A stretch of 60,242 nucleotides of DNA from Nitrospirota bacterium (GTDB lineage Bacteria; Nitrospirota; Thermodesulfovibrionia; Thermodesulfovibrionales; JdFR-85): positions 1 through 60,242 of the forward strand of contig WFMM01000124.1 of the NCBI GenBank assembly GCA_015484595.1. The letters run 5' to 3'. Each line of letters starts with the position of its first letter. Within the stretch, counting starts at the first letter, position 1. The notes beneath the pieces are model-generated. The model was not told the origin of the DNA. It searched no databases and saw only the letters and a program-made list of their open reading frames with translations. Positions 12,994 to 50,547 of this stretch are shown one piece after another. The position numbers were made by a program, and so were the translations under genes.

Positions 12994-13682
12994 CAGTAAT
13001 TCCTCCTTCCAAAGATTGCGGTTCCCACCCTTACGATTGTTGCACCCTCTTCAACGGCAACCTCATAATCTCCTGACATGCCCATTGAAAGGTGCCTGAG
13101 GTTAAATCCCCTCTGGTTCATCTGCTCCTTTAACTGCCTTAATCTCCTGAAGTAGGGTCTTACCAGCTCGGGGTCTTCAAAATAGGGAGGAATGGTCATA
13201 AGCCCTTCAACTATCAGGTTTTCCATGCCCATCATTTCAGCAAGTAAGTGCTCAAGCTCCTCTTCTGCAACTCCGTGTTTTGTCTCTTCCTCCGAGAGTT
13301 TTACCTGCACAAGCACCCTCTGAACCTTTCCGAATTCCGAAGCTGTGCGGTTTATCTTCATGGCAAGCTCCAGACTGTCCACAGACTGTATCATATCAAA
13401 AAGCATCACTGCAGGTCGAACCTTATTTTTCTGAAGATGCCCTATCATGTGCCACTGAACGGTCTGTGGGATTTTGTCTCTGAGAATCTCTATCTTTTCC
13501 TTTGCCTCCTGAACCCTGTTTTCTCCAATCAGTCTCACACCAAGGTCTATGGCTTCCTTGACCCTGTCAGCAGGCACTGTCTTCGTGACAGCCACCAGCT
13601 CAACCTCTGAGGGGTCACGGCCTGCCCTCATTGCTGCATGAGAGATTCTCTTGTACACGGTGCTTATATTCTCAAGAAGCAT
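12993..13682 (-). CDS. yggS: YggS/YlmE-family PLP-binding protein
   Basis: The 229-aa product has a PLP lysine context (LVAVTKTVP) and HMIGHLQKNK. No SD site is visible, and the H1 repeat array abuts the ATG. Confidence 0.9.
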   Translation of the reverse strand: MLLENISTVYKRISHAAMRAGRDPSEVELVAVTKTVPADRVKEAIDLGVRLIGENRVQEAKEKIEILRDKIPQTVQWHMIGHLQKNKVRPAVMLFDMIQSVDSLELAMKINRTASEFGKVQRVLVQVKLSEEETKHGVAEEELEHLLAEMMGMENLIVEGLMTIPPYFEDPELVRPYFRRLRQLKEQMNQRGFNLRHLSMGMSGDYEVAVEEGATIVRVGTAIFGRRNY

Positions 13683-13684
13683 AA

Positions 13685-13906
13685 CTTCTAAAATTTCTAA
13701 ATCCTAATTTCTAAATCCTAAACTCTTTAGAGTGTAGGGGGGAGTTTTTAGTTTTGAGTGCATAGTGTTTAGTGCCTATTAAAAACCTTAACTCAACACT
13801 CAAAATTCAACACTCAACACTAACTACACCCCCAACCCCGATAAACGCTCTTAACGCAAAGAACGCGATAAACGCAATTAACGCAATCAACGCGACTAAC
13901 GCAATA
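13685..13906. repeat. Complete composite repeat element: H1 heptamers, G-box, H3 inverted heptamer hairpin, C-box, N9 nonamers
   Basis: Modules in order: H1 at 13685-13723 (cttctaaaatttctaaatcctaatttctaaatcctaaac); GTGTAGGGGGG at 13732-13742; (AGTKTTG)n at 13742-13774; (CAAMACT)n at 13787-13824; CTACACCCCCAACCCC at 13824-13839; seven AACGCNNNN units at 13840-13906. Confidence 0.85.
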
Positions 13907-13984
13907 CAAGCTTCCCCTTTTACTTAAAATTCAAGATATTTTATCATATAACAGAAAAAAATATTATCCTTCTTATTCACAGCT

Positions 13985-15634
13985 ATGCTTCAAGAGCTTT
14001 CTATAAAAAACTTTGCGATACTAAGAAAGGTAAGGATTCCCTTTAGCAGGGGGCTTAACATCATCACCGGTGAAACCGGTGCCGGGAAATCCCTTGTAAT
14101 CAACGCACTGGAGCTGGTTCTTGGAGGAAGGGCAAGGGCTGATGTGGTCCATCCCCAGGCAAAGGAGGCAGAGATTGAGGCGGTCTTTGAACTGCCCGAG
14201 GGGTTTAAGCTGCCTGAGAGTATCTCCACAGATGAGGACCTGCTCATCCTAAGGAGGGTTATATCAAAAAACGGAAAGGGCAGGGCCTACATAAACGACA
14301 GGGCTGTCCCACTTAAGACCCTTACAACTTTGGGAGATGAGCTTATAGACATCTACGGTCAGCACGAACATCAGAGCCTGCTTAAGCCCCAGGTTCAACA
14401 GCAGATGCTTGACAGCTTTGGAGGGCTTACTGAACTTTCCTCAGAGGTTCGAAGGCTATACCACAAATCAAAAGGGCTTGAACGGGAGATATCTGAAATT
14501 AAAGAAAGACAGAGACAGAGGGCACAGAGGATTGACCTTCTTCAATACCAGATACAGGAGATTGACGATGCAGGGCTGAACCCTGAAGAGGTAGAGGAGT
14601 TATTGAAGGAACGGGAGGTTCAGAAAAACCTGACCCATCTGCTTTACCTGACAGAAAGCTCACTTAATAGGCTTAAGGAGCAGGAAGGCTCTGTGCTTGA
14701 TGTCCTTTCAGAGCTTAGGCACTCCATAGAGGAAATATCAAATGTGGATGATTCTGCCACAGCGGTTCTTAAGATGATTGAAGATGCAGAGGCATTGCTT
14801 TCTGAGGCAGCACACGAGTTAAGGTCAATCAGAGACCACTACGAGGCTGACCCTGATAGGCTTGACCAGATTGAAAGAAGGCTTGACCTTATAGAGCGGC
14901 TTAAAAGAAAATACGGCGACTCGGTTGAGGAGATACTGAAGTACAGAGAGGATGCACAACAGGAACTAAACGAGCTTTCAGGCATGGAAGAACGGCTGGA
15001 GCAGATTGAAAAGGAGCTTTCTGACACAAGGGCATACCTGATGGAAAGGGCATCTCTACTCAGTGAAAAAAGAAGGCATGTGGCTAAAGAAATAGAGCAA
15101 AGGGTTACAGAGGTGTTAAGAACTCTTGCAATGAAAAACGCAAGATTCACTGTCAATCTGCCTCAGACAGGTCTTTCAGAGCAGGGGCTTGAGACCGTTG
15201 AGTTTCTATTTTCTGCAAACCCTGGGCAGCCTGTTAAACCCCTCAACAGGGTTGCCTCTGGTGGAGAGCTCTCAAGGGTGATGCTTGCCCTTAAAAGCAT
15301 CTTTGCCTCTTCAGAGGGTGTCCCTGTTCTGGTCTTTGACGAGGTGGATTCAGGGGTAGGTGGAAAAACAGCAGAGGCAGTTGGCACTAAGCTAAAGGAG
15401 ATATCTTCACTGCATCAGGTAATCTGCATTACCCATCTTCCACAGATAGCATCCCTTGCTGACCATCACCTGCTGGTAACGAAAAAGGAAGGCAAAGAAA
15501 CCACTGAGTTAAGCATAGAAAGCATTGCTGAAGAAAAGAGGGTAAGAGAGATTGCAAGAATGCTTAGCGGCACCGTAACCGAGACATCCCTGAGACACGC
15601 AGAGGAGCTGTTAGAGAAAAACCGGAAATGTTAA
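13985..15634 (+). CDS. recN: DNA repair protein RecN
   Basis: The 549-aa product has Walker A GETGAGKS, a long coiled coil, and the C-terminal motifs ASGGELSRVMLAL and LVFDEVDSG. Confidence 0.95.
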   Translation: MLQELSIKNFAILRKVRIPFSRGLNIITGETGAGKSLVINALELVLGGRARADVVHPQAKEAEIEAVFELPEGFKLPESISTDEDLLILRRVISKNGKGRAYINDRAVPLKTLTTLGDELIDIYGQHEHQSLLKPQVQQQMLDSFGGLTELSSEVRRLYHKSKGLEREISEIKERQRQRAQRIDLLQYQIQEIDDAGLNPEEVEELLKEREVQKNLTHLLYLTESSLNRLKEQEGSVLDVLSELRHSIEEISNVDDSATAVLKMIEDAEALLSEAAHELRSIRDHYEADPDRLDQIERRLDLIERLKRKYGDSVEEILKYREDAQQELNELSGMEERLEQIEKELSDTRAYLMERASLLSEKRRHVAKEIEQRVTEVLRTLAMKNARFTVNLPQTGLSEQGLETVEFLFSANPGQPVKPLNRVASGGELSRVMLALKSIFASSEGVPVLVFDEVDSGVGGKTAEAVGTKLKEISSLHQVICITHLPQIASLADHHLLVTKKEGKETTELSIESIAEEKRVREIARMLSGTVTETSLRHAEELLEKNRKC

Positions 15635-38987: not shown

Positions 38988-40436
38988 TCAGCCCTTCACC
39001 ACGCCGAGGGGACGGAGCTTTGCAACCTTTTTTGATATGCCAGCACGCTCAACCACATCAACCACACTGGAGATGTCCTTGTAGGCCTCTGACATCTCCT
39101 CGGCAAGGGTCTTTCGTCCAGCACTTCGCACAAGAATGCCTGCATCCTCCATCTCACGCCATATTGCCCTTCCCTTTGCCCTTTTTATGGCCTGATGCCT
39201 TGAAAGCACCCTGCCTGCACCGTGACAGGTTGAACCAAAGCTCTCCTTCATTGCCTGCTCAGTGCCTATCAGAACATAGGAGGCCCTTCCCATGTCACCA
39301 GGGATAAGAACAGGCTGTCCGATGTCTCTGTACCTGTCAGGTATCTCAGGGTGGCCTGCTGAAAATGCCCTGGTTGCACCTTTACGGTGAACTATAAGCC
39401 TTCTTTTTTTGCCATCCACTGTATGTTGCTCTACCTTTGCAATATTATGGGCAACATCATAAATCAGGTGCATCCCCAGTTCGGTTTTGCTTGCTCCAAG
39501 CACCTTCATAAAGGCTACCCTGCACCAGTGCATTATACACTGACGGTTTGCCCATGCATAGTTTGCCGCTGCCTTCATTGCAGCAAAATAATCCTGAGCC
39601 TCCTGAGAGTTAAAGGGAGCGCAGGCAAGCTCTTTATCAGGAAGGTTGATGCCGTACTTCTTCACTGCGCTTTCCATAACCTGAAGGTAGTCAGTGCAGA
39701 CCTGATGTCCAAACCCCCTTGAGCCAGTGTGTATCATGAGGGTTACCTGCTCTGGAAAGAGACCAAAAACCTGTGCAGCCCTTTCGTCGTAAATCTCCTC
39801 AACATACTGTATCTCAAGGAAGTGATTTCCTGAACCAAGCGTGCCCTGCTGAGCCCTTCCACGCTCGTAGGCCTTCTCACTTATCAAGGAGGGGTCAGCT
39901 CCCTCTATGGCACCACCTGATTCTATGTACAGAAGGTCCTCAGGCTCACCATATCCCTGCTCAACAGCCCAGCGTGCACCCCTAAGTAGCAGCCTCTCCT
40001 GGTCGGTTCTTGAAAGCCTGAGTCTACCCTTTGAGCCTACCCCGGAAGGTATTTCCTTAAACAGGACCTCCACGAGGTCCCTCATCCTGGGGAGCACCTC
40101 GGAGCGTCTGAGGTTGCTCCTCAGGAGTCTCACCCCTCAGTTTATGTCGTATCCAACACCACCAGGAGAAATAATCCCCTGCTCTATGTCAAAGGCTGCA
40201 ACCCCTCCAATGCAAAAACCATAGCCAGTGTGAACATCGGGCATCGCAAGGGACCTGCCTGTTATGCCAGGAAGGGTGGCAACATTGGCAACCTGCTTAA
40301 TTGCATCAGGCTCCAAATAGTTCTGAAGCACACTGTCAACATAAATAATGCCCTCCACAGCCATGCCCTGAACATAACCAATGGGCACCTTCAGCCTTGT
40401 TTCATCAAGCCTTTCTATGGTAACCTGCCCTGACAT
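38988..40436 (-). CDS. rtcB: RNA-splicing ligase RtcB with an in-frame TGA (40137-40139) at the catalytic-site cysteine position; candidate selenoprotein
   Basis: Track ORFs 40137-40436 and 38988-40133 share a frame and are separated only by one TGA. The junction reads [16 protein letters not shown], against the canonical [17 protein letters not shown] and CHGAGR are intact. The total of 482 codons is a normal RtcB length. Confidence 0.75.
40086..40125 (-). promoter_or_regulatory. Candidate bacterial SECIS hairpin downstream of the rtcB UGA
   Basis: The RNA has CCUG/CAGG (4 bp), an A-C mismatch, GGAGC/GCUCC (5 bp), a bulged A, ACCUC/GAGGU (5 bp) and a 9-nt loop AGACGCUCC. The stem starts 12 nt after the UGA. 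Confidence 0.5.
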
Positions 40437-41854: not shown

Positions 41855-42148
41855 AAAAAGAATCCTTTTATAAGGCTATATAAAACGAATCTACTGGTTA
41901 TTATAACCTAACACCTTACTTTCCTTAAAAATATCAGGCAAAATGAAAAATCCTGTAGCAAAACCGCAGTGTTCTTCATTTTCATTATCTTCACTCGCTG
42001 AACATATTTATTTAATTTAATAATAGACAGTTTTAAAATTTTTTTATATAATAATGGAAAATTAATCTAAAATTATTTTAGGGGTCTAAAGTTATAGGGG
42101 GTTTAAGAGGGGATTTCGGTGCAGAATATTAATTCTATATAAGGAGGT

Positions 42149-43561
42149 GTGGGAATGGGGAGATTAGATGTGAGGTGTAATGTATCAATTCCTGTAACAA
42201 TCCTTACTGATAAGGTTACAAAGGAAACAGAAACAAAAAATATCGGCTTGAAGGGTGCCCTTTTAAGAGAGTCCGTCCCATTTACGGAAAAGGAAATCAT
42301 CCGTTTAAAGGCAAGGATTCCTGAATTAGGTGAGTTTCAGAGTGACGTAAGGGTAGTGAGAAAAGACCAGGGTGGTATAGCTGTAAGGTTTTTAAACATA
42401 GACCCGACATCAAGGCATGCCCTCTGGAACTACATAAAGGGACACATTCACACCACAAAGGAATGCCCCTTTTGTGGGTTCAATAACGAAGTAGCCGATG
42501 TAGAGATATGCAAAAATTGTGGGCTTCCAGTAAATGTAACAGAGAGGGAATTTCATGAGATAGAAAAGGAGATTAAGAAGAAGTGGTTAAAGTTCATAGA
42601 TAATGCTACTGAGGAATTTATAAAAAAGTGCCAGGAGATAGAAGACCTTATAGAACAGGACAGGCTATCATCAGATGAGATATATCTGAGGCTTAAGGGC
42701 ACATTTAACGAATTTGTTGACAGGGCAGAGCTTTTTGAAACAGGAATTTCTGACAGGGAATTAATTGAAAGATGCAGAAAGGAGTTTCATGAAAAAACAA
42801 ACCACCTGTTTATAAAAAGCTATGCCTTTAACAGGACAAGAACATGGCCTAAGGGATACCAGGGTGATTATAAGACTCTGGAAGGTATATACAGAAACAC
42901 ACCCCTTTCAAGGTGGATTGGTTATTACATGGATTACTATGCACTTAACACCACCCTTGCAAAGGCTGTAAGAAACAGGCTAAGGATTTTAACAGACCTT
43001 CTGAGAAGTGAACTTGAAAAAAGAAAAGAGCCCAGGGTATTAAACATCGCCTGTGGCTCGTGCAGGGAGCTCATGGACCTTATACCTCAGATAGAAGATT
43101 CTCAGGCTAAAATAACCTGTATTGATACTGATGAGGATGCCCTCTCCTTTGCATACAACCGATTGAGCATAGCCAGGACAATTGCATCAAACATAGAGTT
43201 TCGTTATTACAACGCCTTAAGGCTTTTTGATTACGAAATAGTAGAAAGAGACTTCCCCAGGCAGGACATAATCTACAGCGTTGGTCTTTTTGATTATCTG
43301 GAAACAGACACACTTATAAAAATATTGAGAAATCTCTACAGGCATCTAAATAAAAATGGCCTGCTGATTGCAGCATTCAAGGATGTCAGACAGTACAGAC
43401 CTCAGCCTTATCACTGGTTTATGGACTGGACTGGTTTTCTACAGAGAAACGAAGAGGACTTTCTTGCCATACTAAAAGAGGCTGAAATTCCTGATGGTGC
43501 AGTTGAAAATTTAAGAGATGATACTAGGGCAATAATTTTCTACAGAATAACAAAGATATAA
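42149..43561 (+). CDS. Three-module protein: PilZ domain + C4 zinc ribbon + class I SAM-dependent methyltransferase
   Basis: The PilZ module has RLDVR (RxxxR) and NIGLKG (a D/NxSxxG-like motif). The zinc ribbon is CPFCG...CKNCG. The methyltransferase motif I is VLNIACGSCRELMDL, with later motifs SVGLFDYL and GLLIAAF. Confidence 0.72.
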   Translation: MGMGRLDVRCNVSIPVTILTDKVTKETETKNIGLKGALLRESVPFTEKEIIRLKARIPELGEFQSDVRVVRKDQGGIAVRFLNIDPTSRHALWNYIKGHIHTTKECPFCGFNNEVADVEICKNCGLPVNVTEREFHEIEKEIKKKWLKFIDNATEEFIKKCQEIEDLIEQDRLSSDEIYLRLKGTFNEFVDRAELFETGISDRELIERCRKEFHEKTNHLFIKSYAFNRTRTWPKGYQGDYKTLEGIYRNTPLSRWIGYYMDYYALNTTLAKAVRNRLRILTDLLRSELEKRKEPRVLNIACGSCRELMDLIPQIEDSQAKITCIDTDEDALSFAYNRLSIARTIASNIEFRYYNALRLFDYEIVERDFPRQDIIYSVGLFDYLETDTLIKILRNLYRHLNKNGLLIAAFKDVRQYRPQPYHWFMDWTGFLQRNEEDFLAILKEAEIPDGAVENLRDDTRAIIFYRITKI

Positions 43562-43563
43562 AG

Positions 43564-44310
43564 GTGGCATTACTAAAAGACAGAGTTGCTATTATTACAG
43601 GGGGCTCCCGGGGTATTGGCAGAGCTATTGTTTCCAGCTTTGCAAAAGAGGGCGCCCTTTGTGCTTTTACCTTTTCAAGTAGCTCAAAGGAAGCAGAGGC
43701 CCTGTCCACGGAGCTAAAGGCAATGGGTTCAAGGGTGATGTGCGAAAGGGTGGATGTCAGAGACTACGAAGGGGTAAAGGAGTTCGTGGAAAAGGTCAAA
43801 GAAGAGTTTGGAGGTCTGGACATACTGGTCAACAATGCTGGTATTAACAAAGACAAATCAATTATCATGATGACCCATGAGGACTGGCAGGATGTGATTG
43901 ATGTTAATCTTACAGGGGTTTTCAACTTCACCAAGGCCTGCATCGTAACTTTTCTTAAGCAAAAGTCAGGGTGTATTATAAATATGTCCTCAGTAAGTGG
44001 CCTCTCACCCTTGCCTGGTCAGGCAAGCTATGCATCGGCAAAATCTGGGGTTATCGGATTAACAAAGGCCCTCGCCCGTGAGGTGGCACCTTACAATGTA
44101 AGGGTCAATGCAATTGCCCCTGGTTTTATTGAGACCGATATGGTAAAAAGCCTTAACGAAAACTACAGAAAAAAGATTCTGGACTTGATTCCATTTAAAA
44201 GGTTAGGGACGACCGAAGAAGTAGCACAGGGATGTGTTTACCTTGCCAGCGATTATGCCTCCTACATCACAGGACAGGTGTTAACCATTGATGGTGGGCT
44301 TAGTATTTAA
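43564..44310 (+). CDS. fabG: 3-oxoacyl-[ACP] reductase (SDR)
   Basis: It has TGGSRGIG, NNAG and a catalytic S...YASAKSG motif. The start is GTG, 3 nt after the upstream stop. Confidence 0.85.
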   Translation: MALLKDRVAIITGGSRGIGRAIVSSFAKEGALCAFTFSSSSKEAEALSTELKAMGSRVMCERVDVRDYEGVKEFVEKVKEEFGGLDILVNNAGINKDKSIIMMTHEDWQDVIDVNLTGVFNFTKACIVTFLKQKSGCIINMSSVSGLSPLPGQASYASAKSGVIGLTKALAREVAPYNVRVNAIAPGFIETDMVKSLNENYRKKILDLIPFKRLGTTEEVAQGCVYLASDYASYITGQVLTIDGGLSI

Positions 44311-44316
44311 TTTTTT

Positions 44317-45531
44317 ATGAAAGACTCTGAGCTTGTTATTACAGGCATAGGGATAATTTCTCCTGCTGGCATTGGAAAAGATGCTTTCTGGCAGGGCCTT
44401 TGTGAAGGGAAAAACTGTCTTGGAGATATTACGCTTTTTAGCACCGATGGATTTAATGTCAAAAAGGCATGCGAGATAACCGACTTTAATCCTCTGGATT
44501 TTATACACAAGCGTCACCTGAGAACCCTTGACAGAAGCACAAGACTTCTAATAGCTGCAACCAGTCTGGCCCTTGAGGATTCAGGAATCAATATAAACGA
44601 GCAAAACACCTTTGATACTGGCTTCGTTGCTGGTAGCACCTTTGGAAGCCTTCACAGTATATTTCAGTTTGACAGAGAAGGGCTGATCGAGGGTCCTAAA
44701 TATGTAAACCCCTCCTTTTTCCCAAACACGGTTATTAACTCACCTGCAAGTCAGGCTGCTATTCAATTCAAGATAAAGGGGTTTAACACTACCATTTCAA
44801 CAGGTCTCTGTGCATCTCTTGATGCATTCATATATGCCTGCGATTTTCTGAGGCTTAAAAGAGCAAATACCGTACTGGTGGGAGGCGTGGAGGAGCTTTG
44901 TGAAGAGATATTCATGGGACTTTATCAGTGTGGACTGCTTTCTGGCCTGGATGGCTCAGAGCCCATCTGCAGTCCCTTTGACAAGAACAGAAATGGACTA
45001 GTGCTTTCTGAAGGTGCTGCAGTGCTTGTGCTGGAAAGAAAGGAGCACGCCCTTAGAAGGGATGCCCCTGTTTTAGCAATGGTCGTATCCTATGCAAATA
45101 GCTTTTCACCTAATAAAAAGCAATCATCAGGACTTGAGATATCCATAAACAGGGCTCTTAAATCAGCAAACCTTAAACCCGAAGATATTGACCTGGTGTT
45201 TTCTTCAGCCAATTCAACGAAGGAACTTGACAGGCTTGAGGCAGGAGTGATTAAAAGCATCTTTGGAAAAAAAGTTAAAATAACTGCTATTAAGTCTACA
45301 ATTGGAGAGCCCTGCTCTGCCTCTGGTGGATTTTTGTTGTCCTCTGCTTCCATGGCACTTACAACCAAGCTCGTGCCACCAACTGTGAATTCTAAAGAGC
45401 TTGACCCTGAGTGTGACATCAATTTAGTTACTGAAGGTGGGGGGCTTTCTGGTCTTAAGAGGGTCATGGTTATCGGCTCAGACCCTTATGGAAACAGCTC
45501 AGCAATAATACTTCAGGGCTACGAATCATGA
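44317..45531 (+). CDS. Beta-ketoacyl synthase-like protein lacking both catalytic histidines (KS partner/CLF-like)
   Basis: It has a thiolase fold. The active-site Cys context is retained (ISTGLCASLDA). HGTGT is replaced by SSANST, and KSxxGH by KSTIGEPCSASGG. Confidence 0.78.
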   Translation: MKDSELVITGIGIISPAGIGKDAFWQGLCEGKNCLGDITLFSTDGFNVKKACEITDFNPLDFIHKRHLRTLDRSTRLLIAATSLALEDSGININEQNTFDTGFVAGSTFGSLHSIFQFDREGLIEGPKYVNPSFFPNTVINSPASQAAIQFKIKGFNTTISTGLCASLDAFIYACDFLRLKRANTVLVGGVEELCEEIFMGLYQCGLLSGLDGSEPICSPFDKNRNGLVLSEGAAVLVLERKEHALRRDAPVLAMVVSYANSFSPNKKQSSGLEISINRALKSANLKPEDIDLVFSSANSTKELDRLEAGVIKSIFGKKVKITAIKSTIGEPCSASGGFLLSSASMALTTKLVPPTVNSKELDPECDINLVTEGGGLSGLKRVMVIGSDPYGNSSAIILQGYES

Positions 45532-46736
45532 AGAAAGTCGTAATAACAGGCATAGGTCTTATAACCTCGATCGGTATAGGAAAAGAAGAGTTCTGGAAGA
45601 ATCTTCTCTCTGGCAGGTCTGGTATCAGCCCTGTGACTGCCTTTGACACGAAAGAGCACTTCACGCATCTTGGCGGAGAGGTCAAAAACTTTAGCCCCGA
45701 AGATATGGGGCTTTCTGAATACATTGATACCTGTAGCAGGGCCTCTCTGCTTGCCATTTCTGCCACGAAGCTTGCCATTGAAGACTCAGGTCTTAATTTA
45801 TCAGCAGAGCACCCTACAGATACGGCCGTCTGTATTGGAACCACAATGGGAGCTGTTCAGTCCTCGGAATTCATAAACGAACAGATGGTCTTACACGGCG
45901 TGCAGCAGTTTAGAAGGGAAGAAATCTCTAAGGTGCCTACCCATTCAACCTCATCAATTGTTTCCAGGCTTAATAAACTGTCAGGCCCATCGATGATGTT
46001 TTCCACTGCCTGTGCTGCTGGAAACTACGCAATTGGCTATGGAACGGATTTAATAAGACTGGGGAGAGCACAGATAGCTTTGGTCGGTGGTGCTGAGCCC
46101 TTTTCAAAGGTGGCCTTTACGGGCTTTAATCAATTCAAGGCTGTGGCACCTGAGAAGTGCCAGCCCTTTGATAAAAACCGTAAGGGCATGATGGTTGCCG
46201 AGGGTGCCGCAGTGCTCGTGCTTGAATCACTGGAGCATGCTCTTGAACGAGGTGCAGAGATATATGCTGAAGTACTCGGATACGGTCTTAGCTGTGATGC
46301 AAAGCACATGACCACTCCATCTGTAGAAGGGATAGTTCTGTGTATGAAAAAGGCACTGAGGTACTCTGGCATCACGCCTGATGAGGTGGATTACATCAGT
46401 GCCCATGGCACTGGAACCATTGCAAACGACAGAGCAGAGGTGGCAGCAATAAAAGAGGTTTTTGGAAACAGATACAGAGAGATACCGGTAAGCTCTATAA
46501 AATCAATGCTCGGTCACACAATGGGTGCTGCCTCAGCAATCGAAGCTTCAGCCTGTGCACTTGCCATAAAGACTGGTTATATCCCACCGACTATCAATTT
46601 CGAAACCCCAGACCCAGATTGCGATGTAGATTGTGTGCCCAATGTGGCAAGAAAACAGGAGGTTTACATAGCAATGAATAACTCCTATGCCTTTGGCGGA
46701 AATAATGCTTCGCTAATTTTAAAAAAATTCTCTTAA
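45528..46736 (+). CDS. fabF: Beta-ketoacyl-[ACP] synthase II-type condensing enzyme (complete Cys-His-His triad)
   Basis: It has FSTACAAGNYA (Cys), ISAHGTGT (His) and KSMLGHTMGAAS (His). An ATGA overlap links it to the upstream KS-like gene. Confidence 0.88.
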   Translation: MKKVVITGIGLITSIGIGKEEFWKNLLSGRSGISPVTAFDTKEHFTHLGGEVKNFSPEDMGLSEYIDTCSRASLLAISATKLAIEDSGLNLSAEHPTDTAVCIGTTMGAVQSSEFINEQMVLHGVQQFRREEISKVPTHSTSSIVSRLNKLSGPSMMFSTACAAGNYAIGYGTDLIRLGRAQIALVGGAEPFSKVAFTGFNQFKAVAPEKCQPFDKNRKGMMVAEGAAVLVLESLEHALERGAEIYAEVLGYGLSCDAKHMTTPSVEGIVLCMKKALRYSGITPDEVDYISAHGTGTIANDRAEVAAIKEVFGNRYREIPVSSIKSMLGHTMGAASAIEASACALAIKTGYIPPTINFETPDPDCDVDCVPNVARKQEVYIAMNNSYAFGGNNASLILKKFS

Positions 46737-46748
46737 CAGGAGGCACCT

Positions 46749-46997
46749 ATGGGGAACAGTGTAGAGCAAGAAATCATATCGATTGTCTCTGATGTAACAG
46801 GCTTTGAGCCTGAAGAGATTACGCCTGATAAGAATTTTTTTGAAGACCTTGAGGTTGACTCGATTAAGGCCATCGAGATTGCAGTTGCCATTGAAAAGAA
46901 GTTCAAGGTATCAGTAAGGGATGATGAAATTCCAAAAATCACAACCGTAAAGCATGCAGTAGACCTCGTAAACAGTCTCCTTTCGCAAAAGAACTAA
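46749..46997 (+). CDS. Acyl carrier protein
   Basis: The 82-aa product has the phosphopantetheine site LEVDSIKAIEI (DS motif). Confidence 0.85.
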   Translation: MGNSVEQEIISIVSDVTGFEPEEITPDKNFFEDLEVDSIKAIEIAVAIEKKFKVSVRDDEIPKITTVKHAVDLVNSLLSQKN

Positions 46998-46998
46998 G

Positions 46999-48411
46999 AT
47001 GCCTTTAAAGGGAACAGAAACATACGACGCAGTAATTATAGGTGCTGGCATTGGTGGTCTTGTGTGTGGTTGTTATCTTGCTAAGGCTGGCTTGAAGGTG
47101 TTGATAGTGGAGCAACACTACAAACCAGGTGGATATTGCACATCTTTTAAGAGAAAGGGCTTTACCTTTGATGCAGCTGCACATTCAATAGGAGGAATAA
47201 AGTTAGGAAATGTTGGAAGGATTTTTAACGAGTTAGGAGTATATAATAGATTAAAATTAACCAAAATAAATCCTTCAGATATTGTATTATACAAAAAATA
47301 TAAAATTTCATATTACTCAGACATTCAAAAAACTATTGAAAATTTTCAGGACGCCTTTCCACAAGAAAGTAAAAATATTAGAAGTTTTTTTGAAAATATT
47401 ATAAATCCCACTCCTCTATTCTTTGCTAATCTCAGAAGTTGGACCTTTGAACGTCTTTTAGATAGTTATTTTAAGAATAATGAGTTGAAAGCTATTATTG
47501 CCTATCCTCTTCTTGGAAATGGTGGCTTACCTCCTTCGCTTTTATCAGCGTTTATAGGGGCAAAGATATATAAAGAATTCTTAATCGACGGTGGTTATTA
47601 TCCAAATAAAAGCATGCAAAGTTTACCCGATACACTTGTTAACATATTTAAAGAGAATAATGGAGATATAATTTTATCGGGATCTGTTAAAAAAGTATTG
47701 ATTGAAAATAATCGTGCTATTGGAATAATTTTGGAAAAGAATTCACAACCTATTCGAGCAAATTATATTATATCTAACATTGATGCAAGAACTACTTATC
47801 TTAATTTAATAGGTAAAGAACATTTACCATCTGATTTCTTAAAAAAAATTGTTCAAATGAAATATACCAATTCCATGTTTATTGTTTATTTAGGTTATGC
47901 AGAGCCAATTGAAGATTTACCATCAGGTGCAAATTTATGGTTGCTTTCAGATTCTAATCTAAACGAAATTTATAATAGTTCTATTAATGGTAATATATTC
48001 AAAAAGAAAAGTTTCATGATACATATTGGCTTAGATAGAAAAACAGTAATTGCTTTTGTTATGGCTCCATTTATATCAAAAGAATTCTGGTATGAAAACA
48101 AAATAAGATGGACCAATAATTTTATAGAATTAGTAACGAGTTATTTTCCAGAATTAAGACACAATCTCGTATATAAAGAAGCTGCTACTCCTTATACTCT
48201 TTATAGGTATACATCTAATTTTAAAGGGGCAGCCTATGGGTGGGCAAGTGTGCCTAATCAATTAGCTGATAATGACTTTAGAAAACCATCATTTATAAAA
48301 AATCTTTATCTTACAGGACACTGGACCACTCAGGGGTTAGGCATTCCTGGCGTTACATATATCAGCTATGATCTCGCAAGGTTTATAATGAAAAAAGAAA
48401 AAATAATTTAG
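46999..48411 (+). CDS. FAD-dependent oxidoreductase of the phytoene-desaturase (CrtI/COG1233) family
   Basis: It has the dinucleotide fold YDAVIIGAGIGGLVCGCYLAKAGLKVLIVEQHYKPGG and is 470 aa long. Most of the gene is extremely AT-rich. Confidence 0.78.
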   Translation: MPLKGTETYDAVIIGAGIGGLVCGCYLAKAGLKVLIVEQHYKPGGYCTSFKRKGFTFDAAAHSIGGIKLGNVGRIFNELGVYNRLKLTKINPSDIVLYKKYKISYYSDIQKTIENFQDAFPQESKNIRSFFENIINPTPLFFANLRSWTFERLLDSYFKNNELKAIIAYPLLGNGGLPPSLLSAFIGAKIYKEFLIDGGYYPNKSMQSLPDTLVNIFKENNGDIILSGSVKKVLIENNRAIGIILEKNSQPIRANYIISNIDARTTYLNLIGKEHLPSDFLKKIVQMKYTNSMFIVYLGYAEPIEDLPSGANLWLLSDSNLNEIYNSSINGNIFKKKSFMIHIGLDRKTVIAFVMAPFISKEFWYENKIRWTNNFIELVTSYFPELRHNLVYKEAATPYTLYRYTSNFKGAAYGWASVPNQLADNDFRKPSFIKNLYLTGHWTTQGLGIPGVTYISYDLARFIMKKEKII

Positions 48412-48423
48412 AAAGGTTTGTAT

Positions 48424-50547
48424 ATGAAAAAATCTAAGGAAGAGTTTGTAGAGGAAGAAATATTAAAACTTTTCCAGTACTGGGGAGCTATAGTTTTAGG
48501 GATTGGTGCATTTTTAATAGTATCTCTAATAATACTTGATTATTTCGCTGCTCATAAAACATTTTATAAATTCTTATCAATCAGAATTGTTAGTGTAATT
48601 CTAATTGTGCTTCTTTTTTTAATTAACAAAAAAAGAAGAAGTAAACAGATACAGGTTGGCATTACAATTGCTGCAACAATAATAGCTGCTTCAATGGTAG
48701 AGTTGATGATACTTTCTACTGGTGGACATCAGTCGCCTTACTATGCAGGAATGATATTAACTTTTCTATTTATTATAGGATTCTTGCCTATATCTTATAA
48801 ACTTACTTTATTAGGTGCTTGTCTAATTTATTCAATATACCTTTTCCCTATAATTATTTTTGATAACATTATCAATCTTAATATTTTCGTTAGTAATAAC
48901 ATTTACTTAATTTCAACTTTTTTTATAGGCATTACATGGCGACATCTTAATCAGTCGCTTTTGATAAAGAATTTCTCCCTTCAATATGATTTATTTATGG
49001 AACAAGAACGCTTAAAACTCTACTCCCACCACCTGGAAGACCTCGTTGCGGAACGGACTAAAGAGCTTGCCAAATCACAGGCAATGCTTCAGGCACTGCA
49101 TGACCATGCAAACGACGGAATACTGGTATTTGATAAAGATGGAACTATAATCGATGCAAATAACAAGGCCTGTGAACTTCACGGCTACACAAGAGAGGAG
49201 ATAAAGGGTAAGAACATAACTGAACTGGAATCTGAAAGTAACATACCTCTTTGTAAAGAAAGGATACAGAGGCTTCTTAATGGAGAACCACTACTTTTTG
49301 AGACAGAGCACAAACGAAAGGACGGCGAAAAGATAATCCTTGAAGTCAGTTCCTGTGCCATCAAGTTTGACAACGAGATAGTTATTGAGTCCTTTCTCCG
49401 TGACATCACAGAGAAGAAAAAACTACAGAACCAACTCATGCATGCCCAGAAGATGGAATCTGTGGGGACCCTTGCGGGTGGCATTGCCCATGACTTCAAC
49501 AACATCCTTACAAGCATCCTTGGTTATGCAAGTATGCTCGTTGAGTATCAACACCTACCCCAGGATGTTATCTCAAAGATTAAAGTGATAGAGTCTTCTG
49601 CACGAAAGGCGTCAAATATCGTTTCAAAGCTACTTAGCTTTGCAAGGAAAAAAGGCAAGGAAGTGGCACCACTTAATCTAAATAGCATCGTAGAAGACTC
49701 TTTAACCATGACAGCAAAACTTATCCCAAAGGATATCGAAATAAAAAAGGAGCTTGACCCAGGCCTGCCCATAATAAATGGTGATACCACACAGTTAGAA
49801 CAGGTTATCATTAACCTTTTGATAAACGCAAAAGATGCCATGCCAGATGGGGGGACCATTTTTATAAAAACATCATCAGAATATATTGATAACAATACCC
49901 TTGACATATCTGTGGATGCAAAGCAAGGAAAGTATGTAAAGCTTGAGATAGCAGATACAGGAACAGGAATTCCCAAAGAGATAAAAGACAGGATTTTTGA
50001 GCCCTTTTATACAACTAAAGAGGTGGGTAAGGGAACAGGGCTTGGGCTTGCAATGGTGTACGGCATTGTAAAGGACCATGATGGATATATTTTAGTCGAT
50101 ACTGAGCCAGGGAAGGGAACCTCCTTTTACATATACCTGCCTGCTGCCAACAAAACACCTGTTATAGCCGAGTTTGATGTATCAGATAAAAAGCCATCCT
50201 GTGGTGAAGTATTGGTAATTGACGACGAATTGCCTGTTTTGCAGTTCGTAAAGGACTTACTTATAAAACAGGGGATAGAGGTTAGGATATTCCAGAATCC
50301 CTTTACAGCTCTTGAATATTTCAAAAAACACAGAAACAGGGTGGATATCATAATCACAGACATCCTGATGCCCCAGATGGATGGTAGTGAGCTGATAAGG
50401 AGAGCAAAGACCATTAAAAAGGAACTCCGCACAGTAGCAATGACAGGCTTTGTGGATGCAATACAGGATGTAGAGGCAGACCGATTTATTGAAAAACCCG
50501 TAAAAAAGGAGGTTCTGCTCAGTATAATAGATTCCCTCTGTGCGTAA
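48424..50547 (+). CDS. Hybrid sensor histidine kinase (polytopic membrane sensor-PAS-HisKA-HATPase-receiver)
   Basis: It has about 6-7 TM helices, a PAS domain (HDHANDGILVFDKDGTIIDAN), H-box GGIAHDFNNIL, G-boxes DTGTGIP and GTGLGLAM, and receiver residues VLVIDDE...ITDILMPQMDG. I prefer ATG 48424 over TTG 48418. Confidence 0.85.
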   Translation: MKKSKEEFVEEEILKLFQYWGAIVLGIGAFLIVSLIILDYFAAHKTFYKFLSIRIVSVILIVLLFLINKKRRSKQIQVGITIAATIIAASMVELMILSTGGHQSPYYAGMILTFLFIIGFLPISYKLTLLGACLIYSIYLFPIIIFDNIINLNIFVSNNIYLISTFFIGITWRHLNQSLLIKNFSLQYDLFMEQERLKLYSHHLEDLVAERTKELAKSQAMLQALHDHANDGILVFDKDGTIIDANNKACELHGYTREEIKGKNITELESESNIPLCKERIQRLLNGEPLLFETEHKRKDGEKIILEVSSCAIKFDNEIVIESFLRDITEKKKLQNQLMHAQKMESVGTLAGGIAHDFNNILTSILGYASMLVEYQHLPQDVISKIKVIESSARKASNIVSKLLSFARKKGKEVAPLNLNSIVEDSLTMTAKLIPKDIEIKKELDPGLPIINGDTTQLEQVIINLLINAKDAMPDGGTIFIKTSSEYIDNNTLDISVDAKQGKYVKLEIADTGTGIPKEIKDRIFEPFYTTKEVGKGTGLGLAMVYGIVKDHDGYILVDTEPGKGTSFYIYLPAANKTPVIAEFDVSDKKPSCGEVLVIDDELPVLQFVKDLLIKQGIEVRIFQNPFTALEYFKKHRNRVDIIITDILMPQMDGSELIRRAKTIKKELRTVAMTGFVDAIQDVEADRFIEKPVKKEVLLSIIDSLCA

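Follow-up and report, generated by a model that had tools for sequence, protein, structure and literature searches.

A seven-gene locus in an uncultured Nitrospirota bacterium encodes a methyltransferase related to PhcB and a sensor kinase whose membrane domain is related to that of PhcS, on either side of a cassette for acyl-chain synthesis. It fills 42.1–50.6 kb of a 60,242-nucleotide (nt) stretch of DNA, here called the window (contig WFMM01000124.1, GCA_015484595.1), whose forward-strand positions are used as coordinates throughout. We favour the reading, at a probability of roughly 0.6, that the locus is a Phc-type lipid-ester autoinducer system, used between cells or by the producing cell itself, with a dedicated acyl supply and gating by cyclic di-GMP (c-di-GMP). 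In the literature that we found, Phc-type signalling is described only in Ralstonia and Cupriavidus. A second finding was unexpected: the core of the anammox gene cluster known as Cluster I recurs here, in another phylum and in a signalling context. The seven open reading frames (ORFs), with domain content taken from Pfam and NCBIfam scans, are as follows.

42155..43561, + strand: methyltransferase of 468 amino acids (aa) with a PilZ domain, a zinc ribbon and a PhcB-like class I S-adenosylmethionine (SAM) methyltransferase domain (domain scans, motifs, hhalign, AlphaFold2 model)
43564..44310, + strand: FabG-type 3-oxoacyl-acyl carrier protein (ACP) reductase, 248 aa (TGGSRGIG and YASAK motifs; TIGR01830 304.5 bits, cut-off 297.75)
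44317..45531, + strand: dead ketosynthase (KS) partner, chain-length-factor-like and amxFabFmut-like, 404 aa (triad lost; best Protein Data Bank (PDB) match 9s5h_C)
45528..46736, + strand: active KS, amxFabF2-like, 402 aa (intact Cys-His-His in TACAAG, SAHGTG and LGHTMG; both KS domains)
46749..46997, + strand: dedicated ACP, 82 aa (phosphopantetheine Ser in LEVDSIKAIE)
46999..48411, + strand: FAD flavoenzyme of the CrtI superfamily, Kuste3607 'PDH' type, 470 aa (similarity to Kuste3607)
48418..50547, + strand: hybrid sensor histidine kinase, 709 aa, probable start ATG 48424 (domain scans, hydrophobic segments, N-terminal profile)

The first ORF opens at 42149, but the probable start is the ATG at 42155, which is preceded by GGAGG. 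Consecutive ORFs are separated by 2, 6, -4, 12, 1 and 6 nt, the negative value being the 4-nt overlap of the KS partner and KS genes. An earlier reading of the window, made without database searches (the sequence-only reading), had described seven tightly packed, co-oriented genes and named them correctly. Its list of absent functions also agrees with the scans, which found no dehydratase, enoyl reductase, acyltransferase or thioesterase among the seven ORFs; tblastn with the dehydratase and the B12 radical-SAM enzyme of related clusters returned no match in the whole window.

A methyltransferase and kinase related to PhcB and PhcS

The KEGG orthology (KO) name for PhcB is attached to many homologs of the window methyltransferase at JGI, but because this is only a label, real reference operons were sought. 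In an NCBIfam scan, no PhcB-named model matched the window methyltransferase or 62 representatives of its family. Our Burkholderiales references are proteins of Paraburkholderia graminis and Cupriavidus, called PhcB and PhcS from operon structure and the literature. Within the species complex of Ralstonia solanacearum, phcB-phcS-phcR-phcQ encodes a PhcB of 464–468 aa, a PhcS with His230, a PhcR of 368–374 aa with a receiver and a kinase domain, and a PhcQ of 336–337 aa (PMC8578825, PMC11960443). The Cupriavidus locus agrees with this in gene order, sizes and a phospho-His near residue 230: the methyltransferase is followed by a MASE8-HisKA-HATPase kinase of 443 aa (His231), a 381-aa protein with receiver (REC) and histidine kinase domains, and a 332-aa REC protein. 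On P. graminis plasmid pPHS1_P (L093) a methyltransferase of 468 aa, 68–69% identical to a single-copy 463-aa Cupriavidus protein, is accompanied by a kinase of 445 aa and two REC genes.

An alignment of Nitrospirota methyltransferases matched one of Burkholderiales PhcB in hhalign with a probability of 98.8% and an E-value of 6e-17 over 276 columns. Residues 176–463 of the window protein (nt 42680–43543) align to PhcB residues 169–458, and both contain the motif P-x-G-Y-x-G-D-Y, which reads WPKGYQGDY at residue 231 of the window protein; VLNIACG follows at 295. The methyltransferase profile also scored 143 bits against the Paraburkholderia methyltransferase. For the kinase, a profile built from 43 Nitrospirota N-termini gave 69 bits with the Paraburkholderia PhcS-type kinase and 63 bits with that of Cupriavidus, where 300 shuffled sequences reached at most 7.6 bits. 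Pairwise blastp of the kinase against a PhcS-type kinase gave 25% identity (E 6e-6). By these sequence comparisons the window methyltransferase is a remote but significant homolog of PhcB, and the membrane domain of the kinase is a remote but significant homolog of the PhcS MASE8 domain. The Ralstonia phcB-phcS pair, which the sequence-only reading had put forward by analogy only, thus proves to be a true relative of both proteins.

The methyltransferase begins with a PilZ domain at residues 3–95 (Pfam PilZ 39.3 bits, cut-off 22.5), followed by a CxxC...CxxC zinc ribbon at residues 104–122 (nt 42464–42520). The first PilZ motif, RxxxR, is kept as RLDVR at residue 3; the second, at residue 29, is NIGLKG, in which Gly replaces the Ser of [D/N]xSxxG. 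The sequence-only reading had stated that PhcB lacks a PilZ domain, and for Burkholderiales PhcB this holds at the level of sequence, where no PilZ was detectable and profile-profile comparison gave a probability of 0.1%. A weak AlphaFold2 model of Cupriavidus PhcB (P0444, residues 1–120; predicted local distance difference test (pLDDT) score 66) shows six strands and then helices, an order that matches the window PilZ domain, and lacks RxxxR; PhcB may carry a degenerate PilZ-like domain.

A profile search over 1.84 billion representatives placed the methyltransferase in a family of 435 clusters (50% identity) at E <= 1e-30. Among 62 diverse representatives the N-terminus is a PilZ domain in 41 and a REC domain instead in two, and both canonical c-di-GMP-binding motifs are present in 30; such input domains suggest a regulated synthase. 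Sequence search of the PDB with the window protein gave no match. The fold neighbours of its AlphaFold2 model (pLDDT 84.7) are small-molecule, natural-product methyltransferases rather than protein methyltransferases, which argues against a protein-methylating role; all are generic and do not indicate a substrate. The methyltransferase domain also resembles a region of an annotated type I polyketide synthase (PKS) on Enterobacter ludwigii plasmids NZ_CP134637.1 and NZ_CP134634.1 (~25% identity, E 2e-12), and the family may be related to PKS-embedded methyltransferase domains.

The kinase has a MASE8-like membrane domain of six hydrophobic segments at residues ~15–215 (nt 48460–49062), followed by PAS (223–332), HisKA (350–411, with His358), HATPase (455–577) and REC (598–704) domains.

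Homologs of the methyltransferase come from Nitrospirota/Thermodesulfovibrionales metagenome bins. Scanning one genome per species, we found relatives in 139 genomes. Nearly all of the best 80 belong to Nitrospirota and a few to Thermodesulfobacteriota or Aquificota. The window proteins were then mapped onto 84 distinct loci. Where at least 8 kb of downstream DNA was available, the operon is closed in 34 of 37 loci by a same-strand kinase that has a homologous N-terminal membrane domain in common with the window kinase (33–50% identity). The kinase gene directly follows the methyltransferase gene in 12 loci, and in 30 the two are separated by a cassette arranged as [FabG] - dead KS - [dehydratase] - KS - ACP - [flavoenzyme]; of these 30 loci, 14 have FabG, 23 the dehydratase, 28 the ACP and 25 the flavoenzyme. 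A methyltransferase gene followed by a kinase gene is therefore the conserved core of this locus family, and since the flanking genes vary from locus to locus, the unit moves as a block. The sequence-only reading had suggested a search for co-occurrence of the seven genes; the ordered set does recur, in dozens of species genomes with different flanks, which is more than chance would give.

Several observations concern the wider family. Two distant members of the methyltransferase family (25–27% identity) stand in modules of REC, PilZ-methyltransferase, HisKA_7TM kinase and REC genes (L091 7122–11889; L092 2321–6619), a second, seemingly undescribed type of pairing with a sensor kinase. Because these modules also contain a polytopic kinase and REC genes, kinase pairing extends across the family even where the sensor domain differs. 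Genes of REC-HD-GYP or HD-GYP type lie beside or near many of the minimal loci with only methyltransferase and kinase (L002, at 13605–14711, and L039, L062, L029, L042, L032, L010, L051 and L089), and near L002 there are, in addition, a PilZ-REC and a GGDEF gene. Such neighbours hint that the output acts on c-di-GMP in an RpfC/RpfG-like manner, and it could feed back on the PilZ-methyltransferase. Small genes occupy intergenic gaps of some cassette loci (L066 6153–8054, L055 14267–14659, L041 15794–16177, L069 12645–13010, L025 12653–13096); on visual inspection they resemble genes of toxin-antitoxin or mobile type (nucleotidyltransferase/HEPN-like, PIN-like, DUF559-like).

The acyl cassette, anammox Cluster I and the surroundings of the locus

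According to the sequence-only reading, the gene combination, with c-di-GMP input and a co-encoded sensor, matched no described system. The KS, its partner and the flavoenzyme do match one, anammox Cluster I (kuste3603-3607), which has been described and is functionally unsolved (bioRxiv 10.64898/2026.05.19.726425; PMC2649909), and the ACP may be of the same type. The best PDB match of the KS is 9s5h_B (466 bits, E 7e-139), followed by Iga11 (349 bits) and Bacillus FabF (316 bits), and that of its partner is 9s5h_C (321 bits), with all others at or below 206 bits. The only study of an anammox FabF heterodimer that we found concerns Brocadia fulgida amxFabF2/amxFabFmut. We take 9s5h and 9s5i to be structures of this pair, although the PDB code did not turn up in a text search. 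It is a KS/chain-length-factor-like complex that decarboxylates malonyl-ACP, and crosslinking assays favour C6–C8 over C16 probes (bioRxiv 10.64898/2026.05.19.726425).

The partner has a weak C-terminal half in the Pfam and NCBIfam scans and has lost the catalytic triad, with Leu at the Cys position, Asn or Ser (depending on the alignment) at the first His and Glu at the second. Loss of the triad is common to nearly all of 61 partner homologs, the Cys position being Phe in 56 and the second His position Glu in 60; in Kuste3606 the three positions are Val/Asn/Glu (PMC2649909). When a database search was made for an outgroup of the dead partner, only Nitrospirota proteins with at least 54% identity were among the matches listed. 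The ACP is 41% identical to Kuste3603 amxACP, and the amxACP entries 7auf and 9s5i_E score no higher than ordinary ACPs in the PDB search.

The flavoenzyme falls under every NCBIfam subfamily cut-off. Its identity is 34% with Kuste3607 (200 bits, over the first 400 residues of that protein), 30% with Kuste3336 (137 bits) and 22% with Pantoea CrtI (85 bits), and on these values a carotenoid desaturase was rejected. Kuste3607 itself makes no lycopene in E. coli (PMC4790861). The window enzyme probably tailors the acyl chain as a desaturase or oxidoreductase.

In related loci the dehydratase is closest to amxFabZ, whose PDB codes are confirmed in PMC10139942. It is found in none of the 10 clusters of the window subtype, defined by a methyltransferase with PilZ and zinc ribbon, as against 38 of 44 other clusters. 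This pattern fits the earlier proposal that synthesis stops at the 3-hydroxyacyl stage.

Other tailoring genes come and go among the related loci. A B12 radical-SAM gene is present in only two. In L090 (14263–15567; Nitrospirae bacterium GWC2_57_9) it lies between the ACP and flavoenzyme genes and is 30% identical to Kuste3608, so that all genes of Cluster I are present here, between those for a PhcB-like methyltransferase and a kinase. In L057 (18892–19977) a similar gene is found ~8.5 kb downstream of the methyltransferase. In four cassette loci a class I methyltransferase of ~290 aa that matches CMAS (cyclopropane/mycolic acid synthase) replaces the flavoenzyme (L031 6662–7543, L038 12772–13632, L053 15786–16640, L065 10828–11697), a swap which suggests that the tailoring step is interchangeable. 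These CMAS-like enzymes are echoed on the Paraburkholderia plasmid, where a true cyclopropane fatty acid (CFA) synthase-family gene (CMAS, 228 bits; L093 3433–4455) lies ~1 kb upstream of the phcB-like operon. Variable tailoring genes (flavoenzyme, CMAS-like methyltransferase, B12 radical-SAM) are the pattern expected of signal diversification.

Cluster I has been called exclusive to ladderane producers (PMC10139942). Judged by these homologies, its core is not exclusive to them and recurs in non-anammox bacteria.

Upstream of the locus, the divergent genes are rsmA/ksgA, archease and RtcB; downstream, zwf and pgl follow the kinase gene on the same strand and are part of the neighbourhood only in the closest relative. 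The AT-rich gap of 300 nt before the methyltransferase gene contains one further feature.

42024..42052, + strand: candidate sigma-70-like promoter TAGACA-17-TATAAT (11/12 match; top-scoring site in 41.7–53 kb)

Promoter and terminator scans gave overall site counts at chance level, so that this promoter is a candidate only. The G+C fraction of the cluster (42000–50000) is 0.35–0.45, with its minimum over the kinase gene, compared with mostly 0.44–0.49 elsewhere in the window; this could reflect horizontal acquisition or simply the composition of membrane-protein genes. RtcB (38988–40436, - strand) is split into ORFs of 99 and 381 aa by an in-frame TGA (40139–40137), and the same split is present in a 77%-identical relative (L005). 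The TGA falls on what we take, from RtcB structures, to be the metal-binding Cys of the GYDIN-C-GVR motif, and the split gene is a candidate for a selenocysteine-containing RtcB, not a pseudogene. A hairpin that begins 16 nt downstream of the TGA (free energy -25 kcal/mol, z -1.5) is by itself not significant.

Weighing the readings of the locus

In the pathway that we propose, the active KS and its dead partner would form a KS/chain-length-factor heterodimer that uses malonyl units to build or lengthen an acyl chain of short to medium length on the dedicated ACP, and FabG would reduce the 3-keto group. Since a dehydratase is lacking in the window subtype, the chain would probably be released at its 3-hydroxy stage, or else housekeeping FabZ and FabI would serve the earlier cycles. 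The Kuste3607-like flavoenzyme would tailor the chain by desaturation or oxidation. The PhcB-like methyltransferase would then turn it into a volatile or diffusible methyl ester, the putative product, in a step that the N-terminal PilZ domain, if it binds c-di-GMP, would make responsive to this second messenger. The ester would partition into membranes and be sensed, as the putative ligand, by the six-helix MASE8-like domain of the kinase, which would relay phosphate through its own REC domain to partners encoded elsewhere.

Several points weigh against the Phc-type reading. The homology to PhcB and PhcS is remote (22–25% identity) and was reached through Cupriavidus and Paraburkholderia rather than through Ralstonia sequence. 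Pfam MASE8 does not match the N-terminus of the window kinase even at E 10; only relatives reach that model, and weakly. The NIGLKG variant of the second PilZ motif makes c-di-GMP binding by the window protein uncertain. No enzyme of the cluster would free the chain from its ACP. A PhcR/PhcQ-type REC gene, Hpt and an output regulator are absent from the window, whose sole REC domain in 60 kb is the one fused to the kinase. Among the best 80 of the 139 genomes, all carriers are uncultured MAGs (metagenome-assembled genomes). Finally, membrane lipids rather than signals are the presumed products of the cassette's anammox relatives.

This last point leads to a reading that we consider unlikely, in which the product is a specialised fatty acid of the membrane (unsaturated, branched or ladderane-related), modified by the methyltransferase, and the kinase monitors membrane state and controls the pathway. 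The KS, its dead partner and the flavoenzyme are indeed closest to anammox Cluster I, as the dehydratase of related loci is to amxFabZ; a Kuste3608-like radical-SAM gene lies inside L090 and another downstream of the L057 methyltransferase; a sensor of six helices with minimal loops could respond to some property of the membrane; and the methyltransferase weakly matches CFA synthase models. However, 12 loci keep the methyltransferase and kinase without any synthase, no acyltransferase is present to load the chain into lipids, and PilZ or REC inputs on the methyltransferase point to a synthase under regulation. The enzyme is homologous to PhcB and not of the CMAS type (17.5 bits against a CFA synthase cut-off of 400), and no evidence ties even the anammox cluster to ladderanes (PMC10139942). 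The same score removes the methylase of the UfaM/UfaD-like furan or methylated fatty acid route that the sequence-only reading had offered as an alternative: the window enzyme is not of the CFA synthase family, and a CMAS-like methyltransferase occurs only in some related loci, where it replaces the flavoenzyme. A cluster for secondary metabolism (a highly reducing type II PKS or polyene-like pathway, a pigment or an antibiotic) with the kinase as a mere pathway regulator is improbable, although the KS/chain-length-factor architecture would suit it, Iga11 of the ishigamide polyene pathway is the second-best solved relative of the KS, dehydratases in related loci match ApeI/ApeP-like Pfam families, and the methyltransferase resembles type I PKS domains at ~25% identity. 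The window lacks a dehydratase, a starter-activating enzyme, a thioesterase, an exporter and a resistance gene, and the kinase sensor and methyltransferase are specifically PhcS- and PhcB-like and co-occur without KS genes. The aryl-polyene or highly reducing type II PKS alternative raised earlier was rejected because the dehydratase pair, starter-activating enzyme, thioesterase and export genes that it requires are absent from the seven genes.

It is more improbable still that the methyltransferase acts on the kinase or another signalling protein, as a c-di-GMP-gated counterpart of CheR in adaptation, with the KS cassette an unrelated insertion. The methyltransferase and kinase genes are neighbours throughout the locus family, the methyltransferase has a sub-threshold match to the CheR SAM domain (23.7 bits, cut-off 27), and the PilZ protein MapZ regulates the methyltransferase CheR (bioRxiv 10.1101/814665). 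Against this, the fold neighbours of the window enzyme are small-molecule methyltransferases, its homolog PhcB makes a small-molecule ester, and an unrelated five-gene insertion at one position in 30 loci, with varying tailoring genes, is implausible. All three rivals lose weight through the 12 cassette-free loci, the specific PhcB and PhcS homology and the absence of accessory genes, and a Phc-type lipid-ester system remains the reading that we prefer.

Comparison with known systems

Our literature search found no paper linking PhcB to Nitrospirota or to PilZ, and none describing PilZ-methyltransferase fusions. If the Phc-type reading is true, the Phc family reaches uncultured, mostly anaerobic Nitrospirota and neighbouring phyla, and PhcB is one branch of a large, unstudied methyltransferase family with PilZ or REC inputs, habitually paired with polytopic sensor kinases. 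Gating of extracellular signal production by c-di-GMP may be a new control point. A wider proposal is conceivable but doubtful: that the Cluster I core is a widespread module for short, tailored acyl chains, which in Nitrospirota feeds a c-di-GMP-gated PhcB-like methyltransferase and yields private lipid-ester autoinducers read by a PhcS-like kinase. In that case the locus would be the first quorum-sensing-type system in Nitrospirota and hold the first signal synthase under direct second-messenger control, and the B12 radical-SAM enzyme of L090-type variants might even lead to alkylated or cyclised chains, which would offer a more tractable route to Cluster I chemistry. Close homologs of the Cluster I KS, chain-length factor, dehydratase and flavoenzyme in a non-anammox signalling context should temper pathway assignments and automated 'ladderane' cluster calls, and the Nitrospirota cassettes supply many new sequences for Cluster I biochemistry.

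The locus most directly recalls phcBSRQ of Ralstonia and Cupriavidus, whose signals are 3-OH-PAME (methyl 3-hydroxypalmitate) and 3-OH-MAME (methyl 3-hydroxymyristate). Both operons open with the gene for a homologous SAM methyltransferase and encode, downstream of it, a kinase whose MASE8-type domain is also homologous; the methyltransferases are of equal length (468 aa in the window, 464–468 aa in PhcB), and the two systems presumably share one logic, in which a lipid ester arises in the cytoplasm and is detected in the membrane (PMC8578825). Identity, however, is only ~22–25%, and the window has a five-gene FabG/KS/chain-length-factor/ACP/flavoenzyme cassette between the methyltransferase and kinase genes. 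The Phc signal is the methyl ester of a 3-hydroxy fatty acid from housekeeping synthesis, whereas the window provides a dedicated set of KS, chain-length factor, ACP and ketoreductase. The window methyltransferase carries PilZ and a zinc ribbon, and the kinase has an additional PAS domain and a fused REC. Genes for PhcR and PhcQ are missing from the window, where zwf follows the kinase, as is a known PhcA-type output, and the host is a MAG of an anaerobic Nitrospirota lineage.

With anammox Cluster I (kuste3603-3608), a candidate pathway to ladderanes, the window shares an amxFabF2-like KS with an amxFabFmut-like dead partner directly upstream and a matching loss of the triad, a dedicated ACP and a Kuste3607-like flavoenzyme; most related loci add an amxFabZ-like dehydratase, and a radical-SAM gene lies inside L090 and near L057. 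It differs in lacking FabZ and the radical-SAM gene and in having FabG, a PhcB-like methyltransferase and a kinase, which are not among the six published Cluster I genes, and its host is not an anammox planctomycete. Ishigamide Iga11/Iga12 and the aryl-polyene clusters likewise combine a KS/chain-length-factor heterodimer with a discrete ACP and ketoreductase, and Iga11 ranks second among solved relatives of the KS, but a dehydratase pair, a starter-loading enzyme, a thioesterase and export genes are all missing from the window, and its cluster is embedded in a signalling pair.

Signalling by diffusible signal factor (DSF; RpfF, RpfC, RpfG) resembles the proposed system in its fatty-acid-derived signal, its polytopic hybrid sensor kinase and its link to c-di-GMP, REC-HD-GYP genes being found near several minimal methyltransferase-kinase loci. 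The window synthase, in contrast, is not a crotonase, no HD-GYP gene is present in the window, and c-di-GMP would act on the synthase through PilZ and not only downstream. The synthases CqsA and LqsA of the CqsA/CqsS and LqsA/LqsS alpha-hydroxyketone systems are pyridoxal phosphate (PLP)-dependent acyl-CoA transferases, unlike the window methyltransferase, and homology is not expected. The arrangement of those systems, with an autoinducer synthase gene beside that of a multi-helix membrane kinase sensing a hydrophobic, acyl-derived signal, is the one that we propose here.

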